Positions 297 through 10,458 of a stretch of 10,458 nucleotides of DNA are shown here, one piece after another (position 1 is the first letter of the stretch; each line of letters begins with the position of its first letter). The notes beneath the pieces are model-generated. The model saw only the letters and a list, made by a program, of their open reading frames with translations, was not told the origin of the DNA and made no database searches. The translations under genes were made by a program, and so were the position numbers. The DNA is from Naegleria gruberi (Eukaryota): NCBI GenBank assembly GCA_000004985.1, contig GG739024.1; one strand, given 5' to 3'.

Positions 297-923
297 ATGG
301 GATCCAAACCCTTTGGATTAAACCAAGATTTGCACAAAGCATTTGAATATTTTGAAAATTCTGCTGAATTGGGATGTATTGATGGAATTTTCAGAGTAGC
401 TTATGCCTACCACAGTGGTGAGGGTGTTAAATTGGATTATTCAAAGGCAATGGAATATTATTTGAAAGCTGCAGAGATGGGAGATGCTTTGGCAAAGAAT
501 AATATTGCAGACATGTATTTGAAAGGCCAGGGAGTTCAACAAAATTTTCAAACAGCTCTCAAGTGGATCAAAGAAGCAATGGAACAAGGTAATTGTGGCG
601 ATAGTTTTGCAACTTATGGAGAAATGCTTTTTAATGGAAATGGTGTGGAAAAAGATTACAATACGGCCTTTGACCATTTTAAAAGATCATCAGATACTGG
701 AGAAAATTATTTCGCACATTTTCTGCTTGGAAGGATGTATGAGTATGGATGGGGTTGTAAAAAGGATATCAATAAGGCTTATGTACTATATTTGAGAGGA
801 GCCAAAGATGGAGATGATGCTGCTATTGCTAGATTGGAAAGCCCATTCAAGAATTCGTTATTTACGAAATCGTTCCACCTATTTGATACAGTAATATTAA
901 CGGTGGAAAATGAAGATAGTTGA
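297..923 (+). CDS. Sel1-like repeat (TPR-like) protein, 208 aa. At least four Sel1 repeats and no N-terminal signal peptide.
   Basis: Uninterrupted ORF ending in TGA. Sel1 signature units recur about every 36 aa: AYAYHSGEGVKLDYSKAMEYYLKAAEMG, NIADMYLKGQGVQQNFQTALKWIKEAMEQG, ATYGEMLFNGNGVEKDYNTAFDHFKRSSDTG, FLLGRMYEYGWGCKKDINKAYVLYLRGAKDG. Codon usage (ttg Leu, aga Arg, caa Gln, ggt/gga Gly) matches the other genes here. ATG sits in a purine -3 context (gacATGg). The overlapping ORFs 441..677(-) and 595..795(+) are spurious. Confidence 0.7.
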   Translation: MGSKPFGLNQDLHKAFEYFENSAELGCIDGIFRVAYAYHSGEGVKLDYSKAMEYYLKAAEMGDALAKNNIADMYLKGQGVQQNFQTALKWIKEAMEQGNCGDSFATYGEMLFNGNGVEKDYNTAFDHFKRSSDTGENYFAHFLLGRMYEYGWGCKKDINKAYVLYLRGAKDGDDAAIARLESPFKNSLFTKSFHLFDTVILTVENEDS

Positions 924-1456: not shown

Positions 1457-2661
1457 NNNNNNNNNNNNNNNNNNNNNNNNNNNNNNNNNNNNNNNNNNNN
1501 NNNNNNNNNNNNNNNNNNNNNNNNNNNNNNNNNNNNNNNNNNNNNNNNNNNNNNNNNNNNNNNNNNNNNNNNNNNNNNNNNNNNNNNNNNNNNNNNNNNN
1601 NNNNNNNNNNNNNNNNNNNNNNNNNNNNNNNNNNNNNNNNNNNNNNNNNNNNNNNNNNNNNNNNNNNNNNNNNNNNNNNNNNNNNNNNNNNNNNNNNNNN
1701 NNNNNNNNNNNNNNNNNNNNNNNNNNNNNNNNNNNNNNNNNNNNNNNNNNNNNNNNNNNNNNNNNNNNNNNNNNNNNNNNNNNNNNNNNNNNNNNNNNNN
1801 NNNNNNNNNNNNNNNNNNNNNNNNNNNNNNNNNNNNNNNNNNNNNNNNNNNNNNNNNNNNNNNNNNNNNNNNNNNNNNNNNNNNNNNNNNNNNNNNNNNN
1901 NNNNNNNNNNNNNNNNNNNNNNNNNNNNNNNNNNNNNNNNNNNNNNNNNNNNNNNNNNNNNNNNNNNNNNNNNNNNNNNNNNNNNNNNNNNNNNNNNNNN
2001 NNNNNNNNNNNNNNNNNNNNNNNNNNNNNNNNNNNNNNNNNNNNNNNNNNNNNNNNNNNNNNNNNNNNNNNNNNNNNNNNNNNNNNNNNNNNNNNNNNNN
2101 NNNNNNNNNNNNNNNNNNNNNNNNNNNNNNNNNNNNNNNNNNNNNNNNNNNNNNNNNNNNNNNNNNNNNNNNNNNNNNNNNNNNNNNNNNNNNNNNNNNN
2201 NNNNNNNNNNNNNNNNNNNNNNNNNNNNNNNNNNNNNNNNNNNNNNNNNNNNNNNNNNNNNNNNNNNNNNNNNNNNNNNNNNNNNNNNNNNNNNNNNNNN
2301 NNNNNNNNNNNNNNNNNNNNNNNNNNNNNNNNNNNNNNNNNNNNNNNNNNNNNNNNNNNNNNNNNNNNNNNNNNNNNNNNNNNNNNNNNNNNNNNNNNNN
2401 NNNNNNNNNNNNNNNNNNNNNNNNNNNNNNNNNNNNNNNNNNNNNNNNNNNNNNNNNNNNNNNNNNNNNNNNNNNNNNNNNNNNNNNNNNNNNNNNNNNN
2501 NNNNNNNNNNNNNNNNNNNNNNNNNNNNNNNNNNNNNNNNNNNNNNNNNNNNNNNNNNNNNNNNNNNNNNNNNNNNNNNNNNNNNNNNNNNNNNNNNNNN
2601 NNNNNNNNNNNNNNNNNNNNNNNNNNNNNNNNNNNNNNNNNNNNNNNNNNNNNNNNNNNNN
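1457..2661. other. Assembly gap, 1205 N.
   Basis: Contiguous run of n. The non-round length suggests a scaffolding estimate. The X-filled ORFs 1444..2694 and 1448..2665 are artefacts. Confidence 0.99.
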
Positions 2662-2695: not shown

Positions 2696-3238
2696 TCAAC
2701 CCTTCTTCATCAAGACATATGACTTCATACCAACATTTGATTTGAAGAATCTAACTTGCATGTTAACTGGATCATTAGTTTTTGGAAAGGTTTTGTAACA
2801 AAAATTAATGATATCACAAACTTCAACAAATAAGTGATTAGTTTCCAATTGAACAGGAGTAGGATGATTTCTACGATATTCAATAATATTTTCAGTTAAT
2901 TTCTTAAATTTGTCCTCAAGCACTTGATAATTTTTGATCAATTCATTCTGTTCTTGTTCGGAATAAACTGCTTTCTCTGCTGCTTGTTGTTTAGCCTTTT
3001 TCAAATCAAAGAACATTTTACTACTTGTTGTATGATAATTTCTTCTATTTGCAATTTCCATTGAAAAGTTTAATTGATGATGCTTTCCGACATTGATCAG
3101 TGGTACGGAATTAAAATTAATCATCATCAATCCACAACTACCACCAACAAGAATAGAACCATTCTTGAGAGATGATGAGGATCCTCGAGAAGCAGTAATA
3201 ATTGATGATGAGAGAACCTTGTTGGCAAGTGTTTTCAT
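2696..3238 (-). CDS. Hypothetical protein, 181 aa, starting MKTLANKVLSSS. N-terminus is basic and hydroxyl-rich (possible mitochondrial presequence), followed by a short hydrophobic stretch and a helical K/E/Q-rich C-terminal half.
   Basis: Minus-strand ORF 2696..3319 ending TGA (reverse complement of tca at 2696..2698). The preferred start is the ATG at 3236..3238, which sits immediately downstream of an A10-AA-A8 tract in an excellent A-rich context. The upstream 27 codons of the track ORF (..FTKKIKKKM) are simply the poly-A tract being translated. The N-terminus MKTLANKVLSSSIITASRGSSSSLKNGS has no acidic residues. ILVGGSCGLMMINFNSVPLI is hydrophobic. Codon usage is good (ggt, aga, caa, ttg). 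Confidence 0.5.
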   Translation of the reverse strand: MKTLANKVLSSSIITASRGSSSSLKNGSILVGGSCGLMMINFNSVPLINVGKHHQLNFSMEIANRRNYHTTSSKMFFDLKKAKQQAAEKAVYSEQEQNELIKNYQVLEDKFKKLTENIIEYRRNHPTPVQLETNHLFVEVCDIINFCYKTFPKTNDPVNMQVRFFKSNVGMKSYVLMKKG

Positions 3239-4942: not shown

Positions 4943-4987
4943 GTCATCAGAGATGTTTTTGGAAATTCTTGGTGTTTCAAATCAAAT

Positions 4988-7900
4988 NNNNNNNNNNNNN
5001 NNNNNNNNNNNNNNNNNNNNNNNNNNNNNNNNNNNNNNNNNNNNNNNNNNNNNNNNNNNNNNNNNNNNNNNNNNNNNNNNNNNNNNNNNNNNNNNNNNNN
5101 NNNNNNNNNNNNNNNNNNNNNNNNNNNNNNNNNNNNNNNNNNNNNNNNNNNNNNNNNNNNNNNNNNNNNNNNNNNNNNNNNNNNNNNNNNNNNNNNNNNN
5201 NNNNNNNNNNNNNNNNNNNNNNNNNNNNNNNNNNNNNNNNNNNNNNNNNNNNNNNNNNNNNNNNNNNNNNNNNNNNNNNNNNNNNNNNNNNNNNNNNNNN
5301 NNNNNNNNNNNNNNNNNNNNNNNNNNNNNNNNNNNNNNNNNNNNNNNNNNNNNNNNNNNNNNNNNNNNNNNNNNNNNNNNNNNNNNNNNNNNNNNNNNNN
5401 NNNNNNNNNNNNNNNNNNNNNNNNNNNNNNNNNNNNNNNNNNNNNNNNNNNNNNNNNNNNNNNNNNNNNNNNNNNNNNNNNNNNNNNNNNNNNNNNNNNN
5501 NNNNNNNNNNNNNNNNNNNNNNNNNNNNNNNNNNNNNNNNNNNNNNNNNNNNNNNNNNNNNNNNNNNNNNNNNNNNNNNNNNNNNNNNNNNNNNNNNNNN
5601 NNNNNNNNNNNNNNNNNNNNNNNNNNNNNNNNNNNNNNNNNNNNNNNNNNNNNNNNNNNNNNNNNNNNNNNNNNNNNNNNNNNNNNNNNNNNNNNNNNNN
5701 NNNNNNNNNNNNNNNNNNNNNNNNNNNNNNNNNNNNNNNNNNNNNNNNNNNNNNNNNNNNNNNNNNNNNNNNNNNNNNNNNNNNNNNNNNNNNNNNNNNN
5801 NNNNNNNNNNNNNNNNNNNNNNNNNNNNNNNNNNNNNNNNNNNNNNNNNNNNNNNNNNNNNNNNNNNNNNNNNNNNNNNNNNNNNNNNNNNNNNNNNNNN
5901 NNNNNNNNNNNNNNNNNNNNNNNNNNNNNNNNNNNNNNNNNNNNNNNNNNNNNNNNNNNNNNNNNNNNNNNNNNNNNNNNNNNNNNNNNNNNNNNNNNNN
6001 NNNNNNNNNNNNNNNNNNNNNNNNNNNNNNNNNNNNNNNNNNNNNNNNNNNNNNNNNNNNNNNNNNNNNNNNNNNNNNNNNNNNNNNNNNNNNNNNNNNN
6101 NNNNNNNNNNNNNNNNNNNNNNNNNNNNNNNNNNNNNNNNNNNNNNNNNNNNNNNNNNNNNNNNNNNNNNNNNNNNNNNNNNNNNNNNNNNNNNNNNNNN
6201 NNNNNNNNNNNNNNNNNNNNNNNNNNNNNNNNNNNNNNNNNNNNNNNNNNNNNNNNNNNNNNNNNNNNNNNNNNNNNNNNNNNNNNNNNNNNNNNNNNNN
6301 NNNNNNNNNNNNNNNNNNNNNNNNNNNNNNNNNNNNNNNNNNNNNNNNNNNNNNNNNNNNNNNNNNNNNNNNNNNNNNNNNNNNNNNNNNNNNNNNNNNN
6401 NNNNNNNNNNNNNNNNNNNNNNNNNNNNNNNNNNNNNNNNNNNNNNNNNNNNNNNNNNNNNNNNNNNNNNNNNNNNNNNNNNNNNNNNNNNNNNNNNNNN
6501 NNNNNNNNNNNNNNNNNNNNNNNNNNNNNNNNNNNNNNNNNNNNNNNNNNNNNNNNNNNNNNNNNNNNNNNNNNNNNNNNNNNNNNNNNNNNNNNNNNNN
6601 NNNNNNNNNNNNNNNNNNNNNNNNNNNNNNNNNNNNNNNNNNNNNNNNNNNNNNNNNNNNNNNNNNNNNNNNNNNNNNNNNNNNNNNNNNNNNNNNNNNN
6701 NNNNNNNNNNNNNNNNNNNNNNNNNNNNNNNNNNNNNNNNNNNNNNNNNNNNNNNNNNNNNNNNNNNNNNNNNNNNNNNNNNNNNNNNNNNNNNNNNNNN
6801 NNNNNNNNNNNNNNNNNNNNNNNNNNNNNNNNNNNNNNNNNNNNNNNNNNNNNNNNNNNNNNNNNNNNNNNNNNNNNNNNNNNNNNNNNNNNNNNNNNNN
6901 NNNNNNNNNNNNNNNNNNNNNNNNNNNNNNNNNNNNNNNNNNNNNNNNNNNNNNNNNNNNNNNNNNNNNNNNNNNNNNNNNNNNNNNNNNNNNNNNNNNN
7001 NNNNNNNNNNNNNNNNNNNNNNNNNNNNNNNNNNNNNNNNNNNNNNNNNNNNNNNNNNNNNNNNNNNNNNNNNNNNNNNNNNNNNNNNNNNNNNNNNNNN
7101 NNNNNNNNNNNNNNNNNNNNNNNNNNNNNNNNNNNNNNNNNNNNNNNNNNNNNNNNNNNNNNNNNNNNNNNNNNNNNNNNNNNNNNNNNNNNNNNNNNNN
7201 NNNNNNNNNNNNNNNNNNNNNNNNNNNNNNNNNNNNNNNNNNNNNNNNNNNNNNNNNNNNNNNNNNNNNNNNNNNNNNNNNNNNNNNNNNNNNNNNNNNN
7301 NNNNNNNNNNNNNNNNNNNNNNNNNNNNNNNNNNNNNNNNNNNNNNNNNNNNNNNNNNNNNNNNNNNNNNNNNNNNNNNNNNNNNNNNNNNNNNNNNNNN
7401 NNNNNNNNNNNNNNNNNNNNNNNNNNNNNNNNNNNNNNNNNNNNNNNNNNNNNNNNNNNNNNNNNNNNNNNNNNNNNNNNNNNNNNNNNNNNNNNNNNNN
7501 NNNNNNNNNNNNNNNNNNNNNNNNNNNNNNNNNNNNNNNNNNNNNNNNNNNNNNNNNNNNNNNNNNNNNNNNNNNNNNNNNNNNNNNNNNNNNNNNNNNN
7601 NNNNNNNNNNNNNNNNNNNNNNNNNNNNNNNNNNNNNNNNNNNNNNNNNNNNNNNNNNNNNNNNNNNNNNNNNNNNNNNNNNNNNNNNNNNNNNNNNNNN
7701 NNNNNNNNNNNNNNNNNNNNNNNNNNNNNNNNNNNNNNNNNNNNNNNNNNNNNNNNNNNNNNNNNNNNNNNNNNNNNNNNNNNNNNNNNNNNNNNNNNNN
7801 NNNNNNNNNNNNNNNNNNNNNNNNNNNNNNNNNNNNNNNNNNNNNNNNNNNNNNNNNNNNNNNNNNNNNNNNNNNNNNNNNNNNNNNNNNNNNNNNNNNN

Positions 7901-8700
7901 NNNNNNNNNNNNNNNNNNNNNNNNNNNNNNNNNNNNNNNNNNNNNNNNNNNNNNNNNNNNNNNNNNNNNNNNNNNNNNNNNNNNNNNNNNNNNNNNNNNN
8001 NNNNNNNNNNNNNNNNNNNNNNNNNNNNNNNNNNNNNNNNNNNNNNNNNNNNNNNNNNNNNNNNNNNNNNNNNNNNNNNNNNNNNNNNNNNNNNNNNNNN
8101 NNNNNNNNNNNNNNNNNNNNNNNNNNNNNNNNNNNNNNNNNNNNNNNNNNNNNNNNNNNNNNNNNNNNNNNNNNNNNNNNNNNNNNNNNNNNNNNNNNNN
8201 NNNNNNNNNNNNNNNNNNNNNNNNNNNNNNNNNNNNNNNNNNNNNNNNNNNNNNNNNNNNNNNNNNNNNNNNNNNNNNNNNNNNNNNNNNNNNNNNNNNN
8301 NNNNNNNNNNNNNNNNNNNNNNNNNNNNNNNNNNNNNNNNNNNNNNNNNNNNNNNNNNNNNNNNNNNNNNNNNNNNNNNNNNNNNNNNNNNNNNNNNNNN
8401 NNNNNNNNNNNNNNNNNNNNNNNNNNNNNNNNNNNNNNNNNNNNNNNNNNNNNNNNNNNNNNNNNNNNNNNNNNNNNNNNNNNNNNNNNNNNNNNNNNNN
8501 NNNNNNNNNNNNNNNNNNNNNNNNNNNNNNNNNNNNNNNNNNNNNNNNNNNNNNNNNNNNNNNNNNNNNNNNNNNNNNNNNNNNNNNNNNNNNNNNNNNN
8601 NNNNNNNNNNNNNNNNNNNNNNNNNNNNNNNNNNNNNNNNNNNNNNNNNNNNNNNNNNNNNNNNNNNNNNNNNNNNNNNNNNNNNNNNNNNNNNNNNNNN
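4988..8700. other. Assembly gap, 3713 N.
   Basis: Contiguous run of n. The X-filled ORFs 4865..8767, 4930..8724 and 4941..8705 are artefacts. Confidence 0.99.
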
Positions 8701-8701
8701 T

Positions 8702-9409
8702 TTAAGTCCTCATTGCCTTCATAAAGTAATTTCTCCTCTCCTCAGTAATTGTGAATGGTTTTTCTAATTGCTCTGGTAATGCCTCTACCAGTGCTTGAAT
8801 GATTGGAAGGAGAACCTTATCAGATTCAATAGATTTCGGAATTTGAATTGAAGTTAGAACGGCTTTGTCATTCTTATCATCCACTTGTTGAATCATGGTT
8901 GCAATTACTGTAGAATATCCTCTCACCCTAACAAAAACAATTGTTTCCATATCAATATCACCCCCCTCAATATCCAAGAAAAAGCAATCAGGAAAACAGT
9001 TATTCATCTCGAAATAGTAAACATCATCATTGGCCACATACTTGTTGGTCTCACCAGAACTGAGCCACTTTCCCCAAGTTGACAACAATTGCTCATCTCG
9101 TTTTTCATACTTTGAAAGAGCTCTCGATACTTTCTTTTCTGCTATTGAGGATTTTTTATCCTCAGTTGATGTATTTGATGTATTTACAGGATCTTGTTCT
9201 TGTTTTGTTTGAATATGATGAGAGGATTTTTCTGCTGATAGTGATGATGACGAAGCTTGTTTTACCTCCTCCTTCTTTGCCTCGGTATGTTGCTTTTGAT
9301 CGTTCTTTGAAACACTCGATCTCAGCACCTTCTTTGGTTTTTCAGTGGAAATCCTTTGAGGTTCTTCAACATTCTTCAATTGCTTTTGTGTTGAACAGGC
9401 TGAACCCAT
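8702..9409 (-). CDS. Protein of 235 aa with an N-terminal dual-acylation motif (MGSACS: Gly2, Cys5, Ser6), a K/S/E-rich low-complexity linker and a C-terminal globular domain of about 120 aa of unrecognised family.
   Basis: Uninterrupted minus-strand ORF. ATG is the reverse complement of 9407..9409, in the context aaaagATGg. TAA stop is the reverse complement of 8702..8704, directly abutting gap 2. MGSACS fits the N-myristoyltransferase consensus M-G-x-x-x-S/T, with Cys5 available for palmitoylation (SH4-like). Residues 10-110 are basic/Ser-rich (KPKKVLRSSVSKNDQKQHTEAKKEEVKQASSSSLSAEKSS). The C-terminus has an alternating hydrophobic pattern (TIVFVRVRGYSTVIATMIQQ, VLLPIIQALVEALPEQL). All 14 Gln codons are CAA/CAG. 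Confidence 0.6.
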   Translation of the reverse strand: MGSACSTQKQLKNVEEPQRISTEKPKKVLRSSVSKNDQKQHTEAKKEEVKQASSSSLSAEKSSHHIQTKQEQDPVNTSNTSTEDKKSSIAEKKVSRALSKYEKRDEQLLSTWGKWLSSGETNKYVANDDVYYFEMNNCFPDCFFLDIEGGDIDMETIVFVRVRGYSTVIATMIQQVDDKNDKAVLTSIQIPKSIESDKVLLPIIQALVEALPEQLEKPFTITEERRNYFMKAMRT

Positions 9410-9800: not shown

Positions 9801-10090
9801 ATGTCTTCAAAACAAATCGATAAATACCCAAGGTTCTTGAAAACAACTCATCCACCTCCAAACTCATCGGGATTGATGGAATCAAATCCTGAGAAGCCAT
9901 TATCCAAGCTAAAGATTGAATATATTCATGGATGCTCAAAGAAGGGTTGTTATGGAAACGTGTTTCATGTTGATGATGAACAGCATTTAGTCTATCCTGC
10001 TGCTGGTTGTGGGGTAGTGCTTAATGTTGAGGATAACACTCAAAAGGTATTCTGCAAGCATGATGATGATGTTGTTGCTTTGGCTAAACA
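9801..10090 (+). CDS. EMAP-like (EML/EMAP family) microtubule-associated WD-repeat protein, exon 1. N-terminus plus the HELP motif.
   Basis: ATG in the context aaaaaaATGtct. IEYIHGCSKKGCYGNVFHVDDEQHLVYPAAGCGVVLNVEDNTQKVFCKHDDDVVALAK aligns to the EML HELP / first propeller blade consensus (..WVYGYRGRDCRNNLY.L..GEIVY..A.V.VLYNV....QR.Y.GH.DDI.CLA..). The exon ends at ..aaaca|GTATGT. Confidence 0.8.
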
Positions 10091-10144
10091 GTATGTTGTT
10101 GATATCAAATTGTTATATTATTGACACCCTATTATTAACAACAG
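10091..10144 (+). other. Spliceosomal intron of 54 nt, phase 2, within the EML gene.
   Basis: Donor GTATGT is at 10091. The acceptor ..tattaacaacAG ends at 10144, with a TAYTAAC-like branch sequence (tattaac) about 7 nt upstream of the AG. The track's in-frame TGA at 10122..10124 lies inside the intron. Splicing joins ..HDDDVVALAK to HPNGRYFASGQMGKDD, reproducing the conserved EML segment (..DDILCLAIHPDRV.VATGQVGKD). Confidence 0.7.
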
Positions 10145-10458
10145 TCCAAATGGTAGATACTTTGCTTCGGGGCAAATGGGAAAGGATGATATGATTTACA
10201 TTTGGGACAGTCACCAACCTGAGGCAGGTCCAATTAAGGCACTCAAAACAAACACCCAATTCAAAAATGGAGGTGTGTTAACTTGTTGCTTTTCAACCGA
10301 AGGATCCTTACTAGCCTGTGTTGGTGGTAGTCCTAAAATGAACATTATTTTAATTTATGATTGGAATAAGGGAACATGTCTTGCCAATGTGAAAGGAACT
10401 AATGAGGAAGTATATGCTTTATGTTTTTCAAAGAGATGACAATAATTTGACTTGTGTG
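10145..10458 (+). CDS. EML/EMAP-like protein, exon 2 (partial; continues beyond the window). WD blades. Contains an apparent +1 frameshift at the T5 run 10424..10428.
   Basis: (H)PNGRYFASGQMGKDDMIYIWDS..GGVLTCCFS..LLACVGGSPKMNIILIYDWNKGTCLANVKGTNEEVYALCF matches the EML segment HPD..ATGQ..VRVWDS..GVGCLDFS..HLCVIDDSNEHMLTVWDW..KTTNEVVLAVEF. After 10428 the homologous residues (QRDDNNLTCV, about HPTD.NTIITCG) are in the +1 frame. The frame-0 TGA at 10437..10439 is therefore not the true stop. Confidence 0.75.

Follow-up and report, generated by a model that had tools for sequence, protein, structure and literature searches.

An apparent frameshift in an EML-like gene at the end of a Naegleria gruberi scaffold is best explained by read-end errors

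Introduction

The window analyzed in this study is one entire small draft scaffold of Naegleria gruberi NEG-M, 10,458 bp in length, and at its right end an EML-like gene appears to lose its reading frame shortly before the sequence stops. Does this break reflect the biology of the organism or the quality of the assembly? The initial annotation, made from the letters alone, located a single indel within a run of five T residues and left open whether it was a homopolymer error or a genuine inactivating mutation. The scaffold is built from three contigs (about 1.5, 2.3, and 1.8 kb) joined across two gaps of N (Table 1), the NEG-M genome was sequenced with Sanger technology (PMC9928731 Table 1), and Naegleria is described as mainly heterozygous diploid (PMC9928731). 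Here, we compare the locus with an intact copy of the same gene, with the twins of its neighboring genes, and with close orthologues. The comparison very probably places the apparent frameshift among the consequences of base calling at the end of a redundant, low-coverage scaffold, where two errors rather than one would be responsible.

Results

The interrupted gene encodes an EML-family protein

The assignment of the gene as EML-like was borne out. The fragment encoded within the window matches the Pfam Beta-prop_EML entry (1.9e-20), together with a weak HELP motif, as well as the PDB structure of EML1 (4ci8; 3e-17). By itself, the fragment scores 69-74 bits on the profile of the first EML beta-propeller (PF23409), which is below the gathering cut-off of 88.2 because it ends after about 124 of the 267 profile positions; the intact copy of the protein described below, FM169, passes the same cut-off with 168.5 bits. 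Because the window ends before the second EML beta-propeller (PF23414), which forms the tandem TAPE domain together with the first, this propeller was scored on FM169 only, where it passes its cut-off of 90 with 350.5 bits. The HELP motif (PF03451) is matched by residues 33-72 with 19.3-19.5 bits (E about 7e-4) against a cut-off of 27, and the HELP-like stretch aligns with EML1 from residue 48 onward. Vertebrate EML1 proteins are about 32% identical to FM169 (E about 1e-85). These profile and sequence matches place FM169 in the EML family, as a member whose N-terminus is very short and whose HELP match falls below threshold.

The portion of the gene in the window comprises two exons separated by a short intron (Table 1), with exon 1 encoding the weak HELP-motif match plus the start of the first beta-propeller. 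The spliced window product is 99% identical to a public 194-aa model (P0001, 'predicted protein [Naegleria gruberi]'). In the clustered protein set, FM169 falls within the same 90%-identity cluster as this 194-aa model, and it is the latter, a probable artefact, that represents the cluster, with the intact 684-aa protein being a mere member. When 1.84 billion representative proteins were searched with high sensitivity, the matches included proteins of about 630 aa that share the N-terminus, as well as unspliced ORF fragments of related organisms that stop at the same intron position. Intron 1 is found at the same codon (between ..AK and H/Q..) in the window (10091..10144), in locus L001 (about 862..905), and in locus L002 (about 6361..6457). 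Two further introns occur in the EML-like gene of the organism represented by L002 and L003, while the window, FM169, and L001 each have a single long second exon.

An intact copy of the gene locates two indels downstream of the T5 run

The last 60 bases of the window read ..GAAGTATATGCTTTATGTTTTTCAAAGAGATGACAATAATTTGACTTGTGTG. Several elements of the initial annotation are indeed present in these letters: the T5 run exists, frame 0 reads ..NEEVYALCFSKR before reaching TGA at 10437..10439, and the +1 frame from 10429 reads QRDDNNLTCV through the last base at 10458. From the stop, only 19 bases remain before the gene leaves the scaffold end. The openness of the +1 frame is not evidence in its own right, because 10 open codons in that frame would be expected by chance with a probability of 47% at the base composition of the window; homology alone counts.

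Such homology is available from within the same genome. A full-length copy of the gene is NAEGRDRAFT_73917 (P0153; XP_002670977.1 / EFC38233.1 / UniProt D2VXZ8), a protein of 684 aa named 'FM169' and encoded on a 250,472-bp scaffold. We take the 'FM' of this name to denote the flagellar-motility gene set of the N. gruberi genome paper (Fritz-Laylin et al. 2010). All comparisons with this main copy were made at the protein level. In a tblastn alignment, FM169 residues 1-193 lie on 9801..10433 in a single frame, the sole difference being the intron, which is scored as a gap, and none of the 193 amino acids differs. A second HSP places residues 191-198 at 10426..10449 in frame 1. At the site of the apparent frameshift FM169 reads CFSKDDNNLYLCGK; the window product is the same as FM169 through ..GTNEEVYALCFSK (..ALCFSK), after which FM169 continues DDNNLYLCGKNTFKYY.. 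(DDNNLYLCGKN). Since FM169 keeps C-F-S-K, the codons TTT TCA AAG through and after the T5 run are correct in frame 0.

To this protein we fitted the last 64 bases of the window by scoring all single edits and all deletion-plus-insertion pairs against FM169. The best single edit is the deletion of 10433 or 10434, which yields CFSKDDNNL. The best pair combines that deletion with the insertion of a T at 10449/10450, upon which 21 of 21 residues are identical to FM169 (..DDNNLYLC) and the window equals FM169 at each of the 201 residues that it encodes up to the scaffold end. The window form of the two indel sites is AAAGAGATGAC...TTTGACTTG. Only 15 or 16 bases are therefore out of frame (10434/10435..10449), and both indels are located at most 25 bases from the scaffold end. 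Within this patch, frame 0 meets a false TGA at 10437..10439 and a TAA at 10443..10445, while frame 0 resumes before the scaffold end, where it reads ..DLC. These results relocate the break that had been assigned to the T5 run, as removal of 10433 or 10434 fits better than removal of a T. They also explain the TCV that had been equated with a TCG blade motif, which results from reading (Y)LCG out of frame, and they add a second, compensating indel (the missing T) that had been overlooked.

Close orthologues were examined at the same site. In related heteroloboseans (loci L001-L003), the sequence F-[SA][KS]DDxxx[YIV][LM]CGKN is encoded in one frame, as seen in FAKDDSCVYLCGKN of P0070 (an ENA metagenome contig, L001) and FSSDDSKILLCGKN of the Logan contig L002. 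Five residues separate DD from CGK in all of the orthologues, these two included, whereas repair of the T5 run would give four. The close orthologues are in line with the two-indel reading. A homologue search with FM169 yielded no near-identical protein of N. gruberi from a different assembly, a paralogue at 50% identity (P0158) being the next relative, and metagenome contigs searched with a degenerate DNA pattern covering the window and intact forms of the site gave no match.

The same comparisons bear on a simple miscount of the T5 run at 10424..10428, in which case the true DNA would be TGTTTTCAAAGAGATGAC, with four T residues, and the protein would continue as QRDDNNLTCV. Deleting one T does open the frame to the scaffold end and recovers DDNNL. 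Furthermore, the Pfam scores do not separate the repairs (73.9 bits for the T5 fix, 73.8 for the two-indel fix, and 69.1 for the raw model). The profile is too general to choose among them; discrimination comes from the near-identical copy and from close orthologues alone. The intact copy reads FSKDDNNLYLCG and not FQRDDNNLTCV, the latter having two mismatches (QR for SK) and being one residue short before the CGK that is conserved in all close orthologues. In addition, the raw frame 0 already contains both S-K, following the T run, and the terminal L-C. We consider a T5 miscount to be extremely improbable.

Recoding, whether by programmed +1 frameshifting, by a micro-intron, or by reassignment of TGA, could also be signaled by an in-frame TGA with homologous sequence following in a different frame, and this is the one observation in favor of such a scenario. 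Against it, the same protein is encoded in one uninterrupted frame elsewhere in the same genome, and each of the three variants was rejected individually. A programmed +1 frameshift is contradicted by FM169 and loci L001-L003, all of which are in one frame, and the shift site is not conserved; a micro-intron would remove the out-of-frame patch, which encodes the conserved DDNNL; and a reassigned TGA would be followed in frame 0 by CAA and then TAA, another stop. The chance that recoding is involved seems vanishingly small.

Frame-shifting indels are confined to contig ends across three neighboring genes

The other two gene models compared on the scaffold have much longer twins as well. NAEGRDRAFT_54743 (P0154; D2W560), 8705..9409 (-), 235 aa, is an N-terminal fragment of NAEGRDRAFT_73916 (P0155; D2VXZ7), 1578 aa, and NAEGRDRAFT_76547 (P0156; D2W559), 2699..3238 (-), 180 aa, is an N-terminal fragment of NAEGRDRAFT_81647 (P0157; D2VXZ6), 646 aa. 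Both twins are encoded on the same 250,472-bp scaffold as FM169, and the consecutive accessions D2VXZ6, D2VXZ7, and D2VXZ8 suggest that the three are neighbors in a segment of which the small scaffold is a second, redundant copy. Elsewhere on the small scaffold, positions 297..923 (+) contain a 208-aa ORF with four Sel1 repeats (Pfam 2.3e-36); this exact ORF was absent from the protein collection searched, so its public gene model, if any, differs.

Comparison with the twins revealed that, wherever a gene runs on past another coding contig end, that end also carries an indel of this kind (Table 1). The extra G at about 2700..2702 truncates the 180-aa model at a false stop (..KKG-stop), while the true frame runs on as VELLMLKIVNQEW into the gap. 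Likewise, the two omissions within 8705..8722 create the false C-terminus MKAMRT-stop of the 235-aa model, which upon repair becomes IEGNEDFK as in its twin. In total, six of six frame-shifting single-base indels are located within 40 bases of a contig end: one at 2662, one at 4987, two at 8701, and two at 10458. Across the 2,735 coding nt that were compared with the three twin proteins, no frame-shifting indel was found in the interior, and if the six were placed uniformly, all of them would fall within the five 45-base end zones with a probability of about 3e-7.

Table 1. Positions of the features discussed, given for the whole 10,458-bp window. Extra and missing bases are relative to the twin protein named.
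Feature	Position	Strand	Basis or reading
Scaffold gap, 1205 N	1457..2661	none	Read from sequence
Extra G (GGG for GG), 38-40 nt from contig end 2662	2700..2702	-	Deleting one G gives 34/34 against P0157 (..LMKKVELLMLKIVNQEW)
Missing base (TTTGA-TTTGAA), 5-6 nt from contig end 4987	4981..4983	-	Inserted A restores FEFETPRISK of P0155
Scaffold gap, 3713 N	4988..8700	none	Read from sequence
Two missing bases (8722/8721, 8706/8705), within 21 nt of contig end 8701	8705..8722	-	Inserting both gives ..RRNYFIEGNEDFK of P0155
Exon 1 of EML-like gene, ATG at 9801	9801..10090	+	Translation is FM169 (P0153) residues 1-96; used by public model P0001
54-nt spliceosomal intron, GTATGT...AG, phase 2	10091..10144	+	Splicing yields ..ALAKHPNGRYFASGQ, identical to P0001 and FM169
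Exon 2, part correct in frame 0, including T5 run and TCA AAG (S K)	10145..10433	+	tblastn with FM169
T5 run, not the site of the frame change	10424..10428	+	Intact copy keeps C-F-S-K through the run
First probable error, one extra base (G or A) in AAAGAGAT	10433..10434	+	Deleting 10433 or 10434 gives ..CFSKDDNNL as in FM169
Out-of-frame patch, GAT GAC AAT AAT TTG, DDNNL in +1 frame	10435..10449	+	Second tblastn HSP
Second probable error, missing T (TTG-TAC read as TTG-AC), back to frame 0	10449..10450	+	Insertion plus first fix gives 21/21
Last 9 scaffold bases, frame 0 again, (Y)LC plus first base of G codon	10450..10458	+	FM169 has YLCG here

The two copies of the segment are not entirely identical. 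The 235-aa model differs from the N-terminus of its twin by 6 substitutions and an in-frame 3-aa indel, and 3 substitutions distinguish the copies at the C-terminus of NAEGRDRAFT_81647; the three other stretches are 100% identical. The in-frame difference is a 9-nt one at about 9165..9175 (-), where the 235-aa model reads ..VNTSNTSTED.. and its twin ..VNTSTEE.., with 'NTS' as the tandem unit. Because this difference is situated in a contig interior, it resembles genuine allelic variation, which suggests that the scaffold may derive from a second haplotype and not from a re-assembly of the same reads. From these features, the small scaffold has the appearance of a second haplotype in a heterozygous genome, although it could also be a very recent duplicate.

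If the scaffold does represent a second haplotype or a recent segmental duplicate, then the indels in the EML-like gene might themselves be real, making this copy an inactivated allele or a pseudogene of FM169. The real-looking variation between the copies, namely the NTS repeat indel and the 9 substitutions, would be in accord with this scenario, as would the mainly heterozygous diploid state of Naegleria (PMC9928731). However, several observations argue to the contrary: 1) upstream of the patch, the 0/193 amino-acid differences show no sign of the relaxed constraint expected of a pseudogene, 2) an intact 684-aa copy is encoded in the same genome, 3) the two indels compensate for each other within 16 nt, and both of them lie no more than 25 nt from the scaffold end, and 4) two other genes show the same type of indel at a further three contig ends, with none in the interior (P about 3e-7). 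Real inactivation would accordingly require two neighboring pseudogenes as well, each of them broken only at read ends. Between the two explanations that had originally been offered for the frameshift, sequencing error is now strongly supported, albeit not in the form of a T5 homopolymer miscount, and a pseudogene is very unlikely.

Discussion

The current study asked whether the frame of an EML-like gene is truly broken at the end of a small N. gruberi scaffold. From the position of the indels relative to FM169, and from the recurrence of similar indels at the ends of the other contigs, we infer that they are base-calling errors, and it is with considerable confidence that we attribute the apparent frameshift to two such errors at the end of a redundant, low-coverage Sanger scaffold. 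The clustering of the indels at contig ends is what favors an artefact over a pseudogene, a programmed frameshift, or a micro-intron. Three adjacent genes are broken exactly at contig ends, a pattern that is explained by error-rich tails of Sanger reads where contigs are thinly covered and not by independent inactivation. The frameshift is not a real biological feature, and it reveals no new biology.

A plausible sequence of events can be proposed. The small, low-coverage NEG-M scaffold would duplicate a segment that is well assembled on the 250,472-bp scaffold and includes NAEGRDRAFT_81647, NAEGRDRAFT_73916, and NAEGRDRAFT_73917 (FM169, the EML-like two-propeller protein), either as a second haplotype or as an unmerged duplicate. 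The poor-quality tail of the terminal read or reads would then have contributed an extra base at 10433/10434 and lost a T at 10449/10450. Together, these two errors would shift 15 or 16 bases and thereby expose the false TGA, which the gene predictor presumably accepted, giving rise to the spurious 194-aa model NAEGRDRAFT_76549. Based upon this reading, the intact DNA at the site should be TCAAAGGATGAC (or TCAAAAGATGAC) and TTTGTACTTGTGTGG.

A more specific alternative is that NEG-M is heterozygous for a null allele of FM169, with the scaffold being a true second haplotype and both of its indels real. In that case, one would have to assume either that the indels at the other contig ends are coincidental errors or that they, too, are real, and we regard such a null allele as even less likely than the inactivation of this copy in general.

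With read-end errors as the preferred explanation, the consequences are limited to data hygiene: three public models would be truncated, redundant fragments whose ends stem from base-calling errors. The entries D2W561 (NAEGRDRAFT_76549), D2W560, and D2W559 would be truncated duplicates of D2VXZ8, D2VXZ7, and D2VXZ6, respectively. Fragment models of this type inflate gene counts and could pass for paralogues or pseudogenes.

The locus can be compared to known systems at three levels. Firstly, at the level of the protein, its HELP-like segment and the first propeller of the window can be aligned with the EML/EMAP family, as represented by the TAPE domain of human EML1 (4ci8). Unlike EML1, the N. 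gruberi protein lacks a long N-terminal region, since only about 32 residues precede the HELP-like segment. Secondly, at the level of the gene, the window copy and NAEGRDRAFT_73917 share the same neighbors and identical residues 1-193, but NAEGRDRAFT_73917 is full length on the 250,472-bp scaffold, whereas the window copy meets a false TGA and, soon afterwards, the scaffold end. Thirdly, at the level of the assembly, haplotigs with poor read ends are a well-known class of artefact in Sanger shotgun drafts of heterozygous genomes. We saw no difference between the window and that class: like such haplotigs, the window is small, gapped, and collinear with a segment of a large scaffold to which it is 96-100% identical at the protein level, and its indels are likewise confined to the contig ends.
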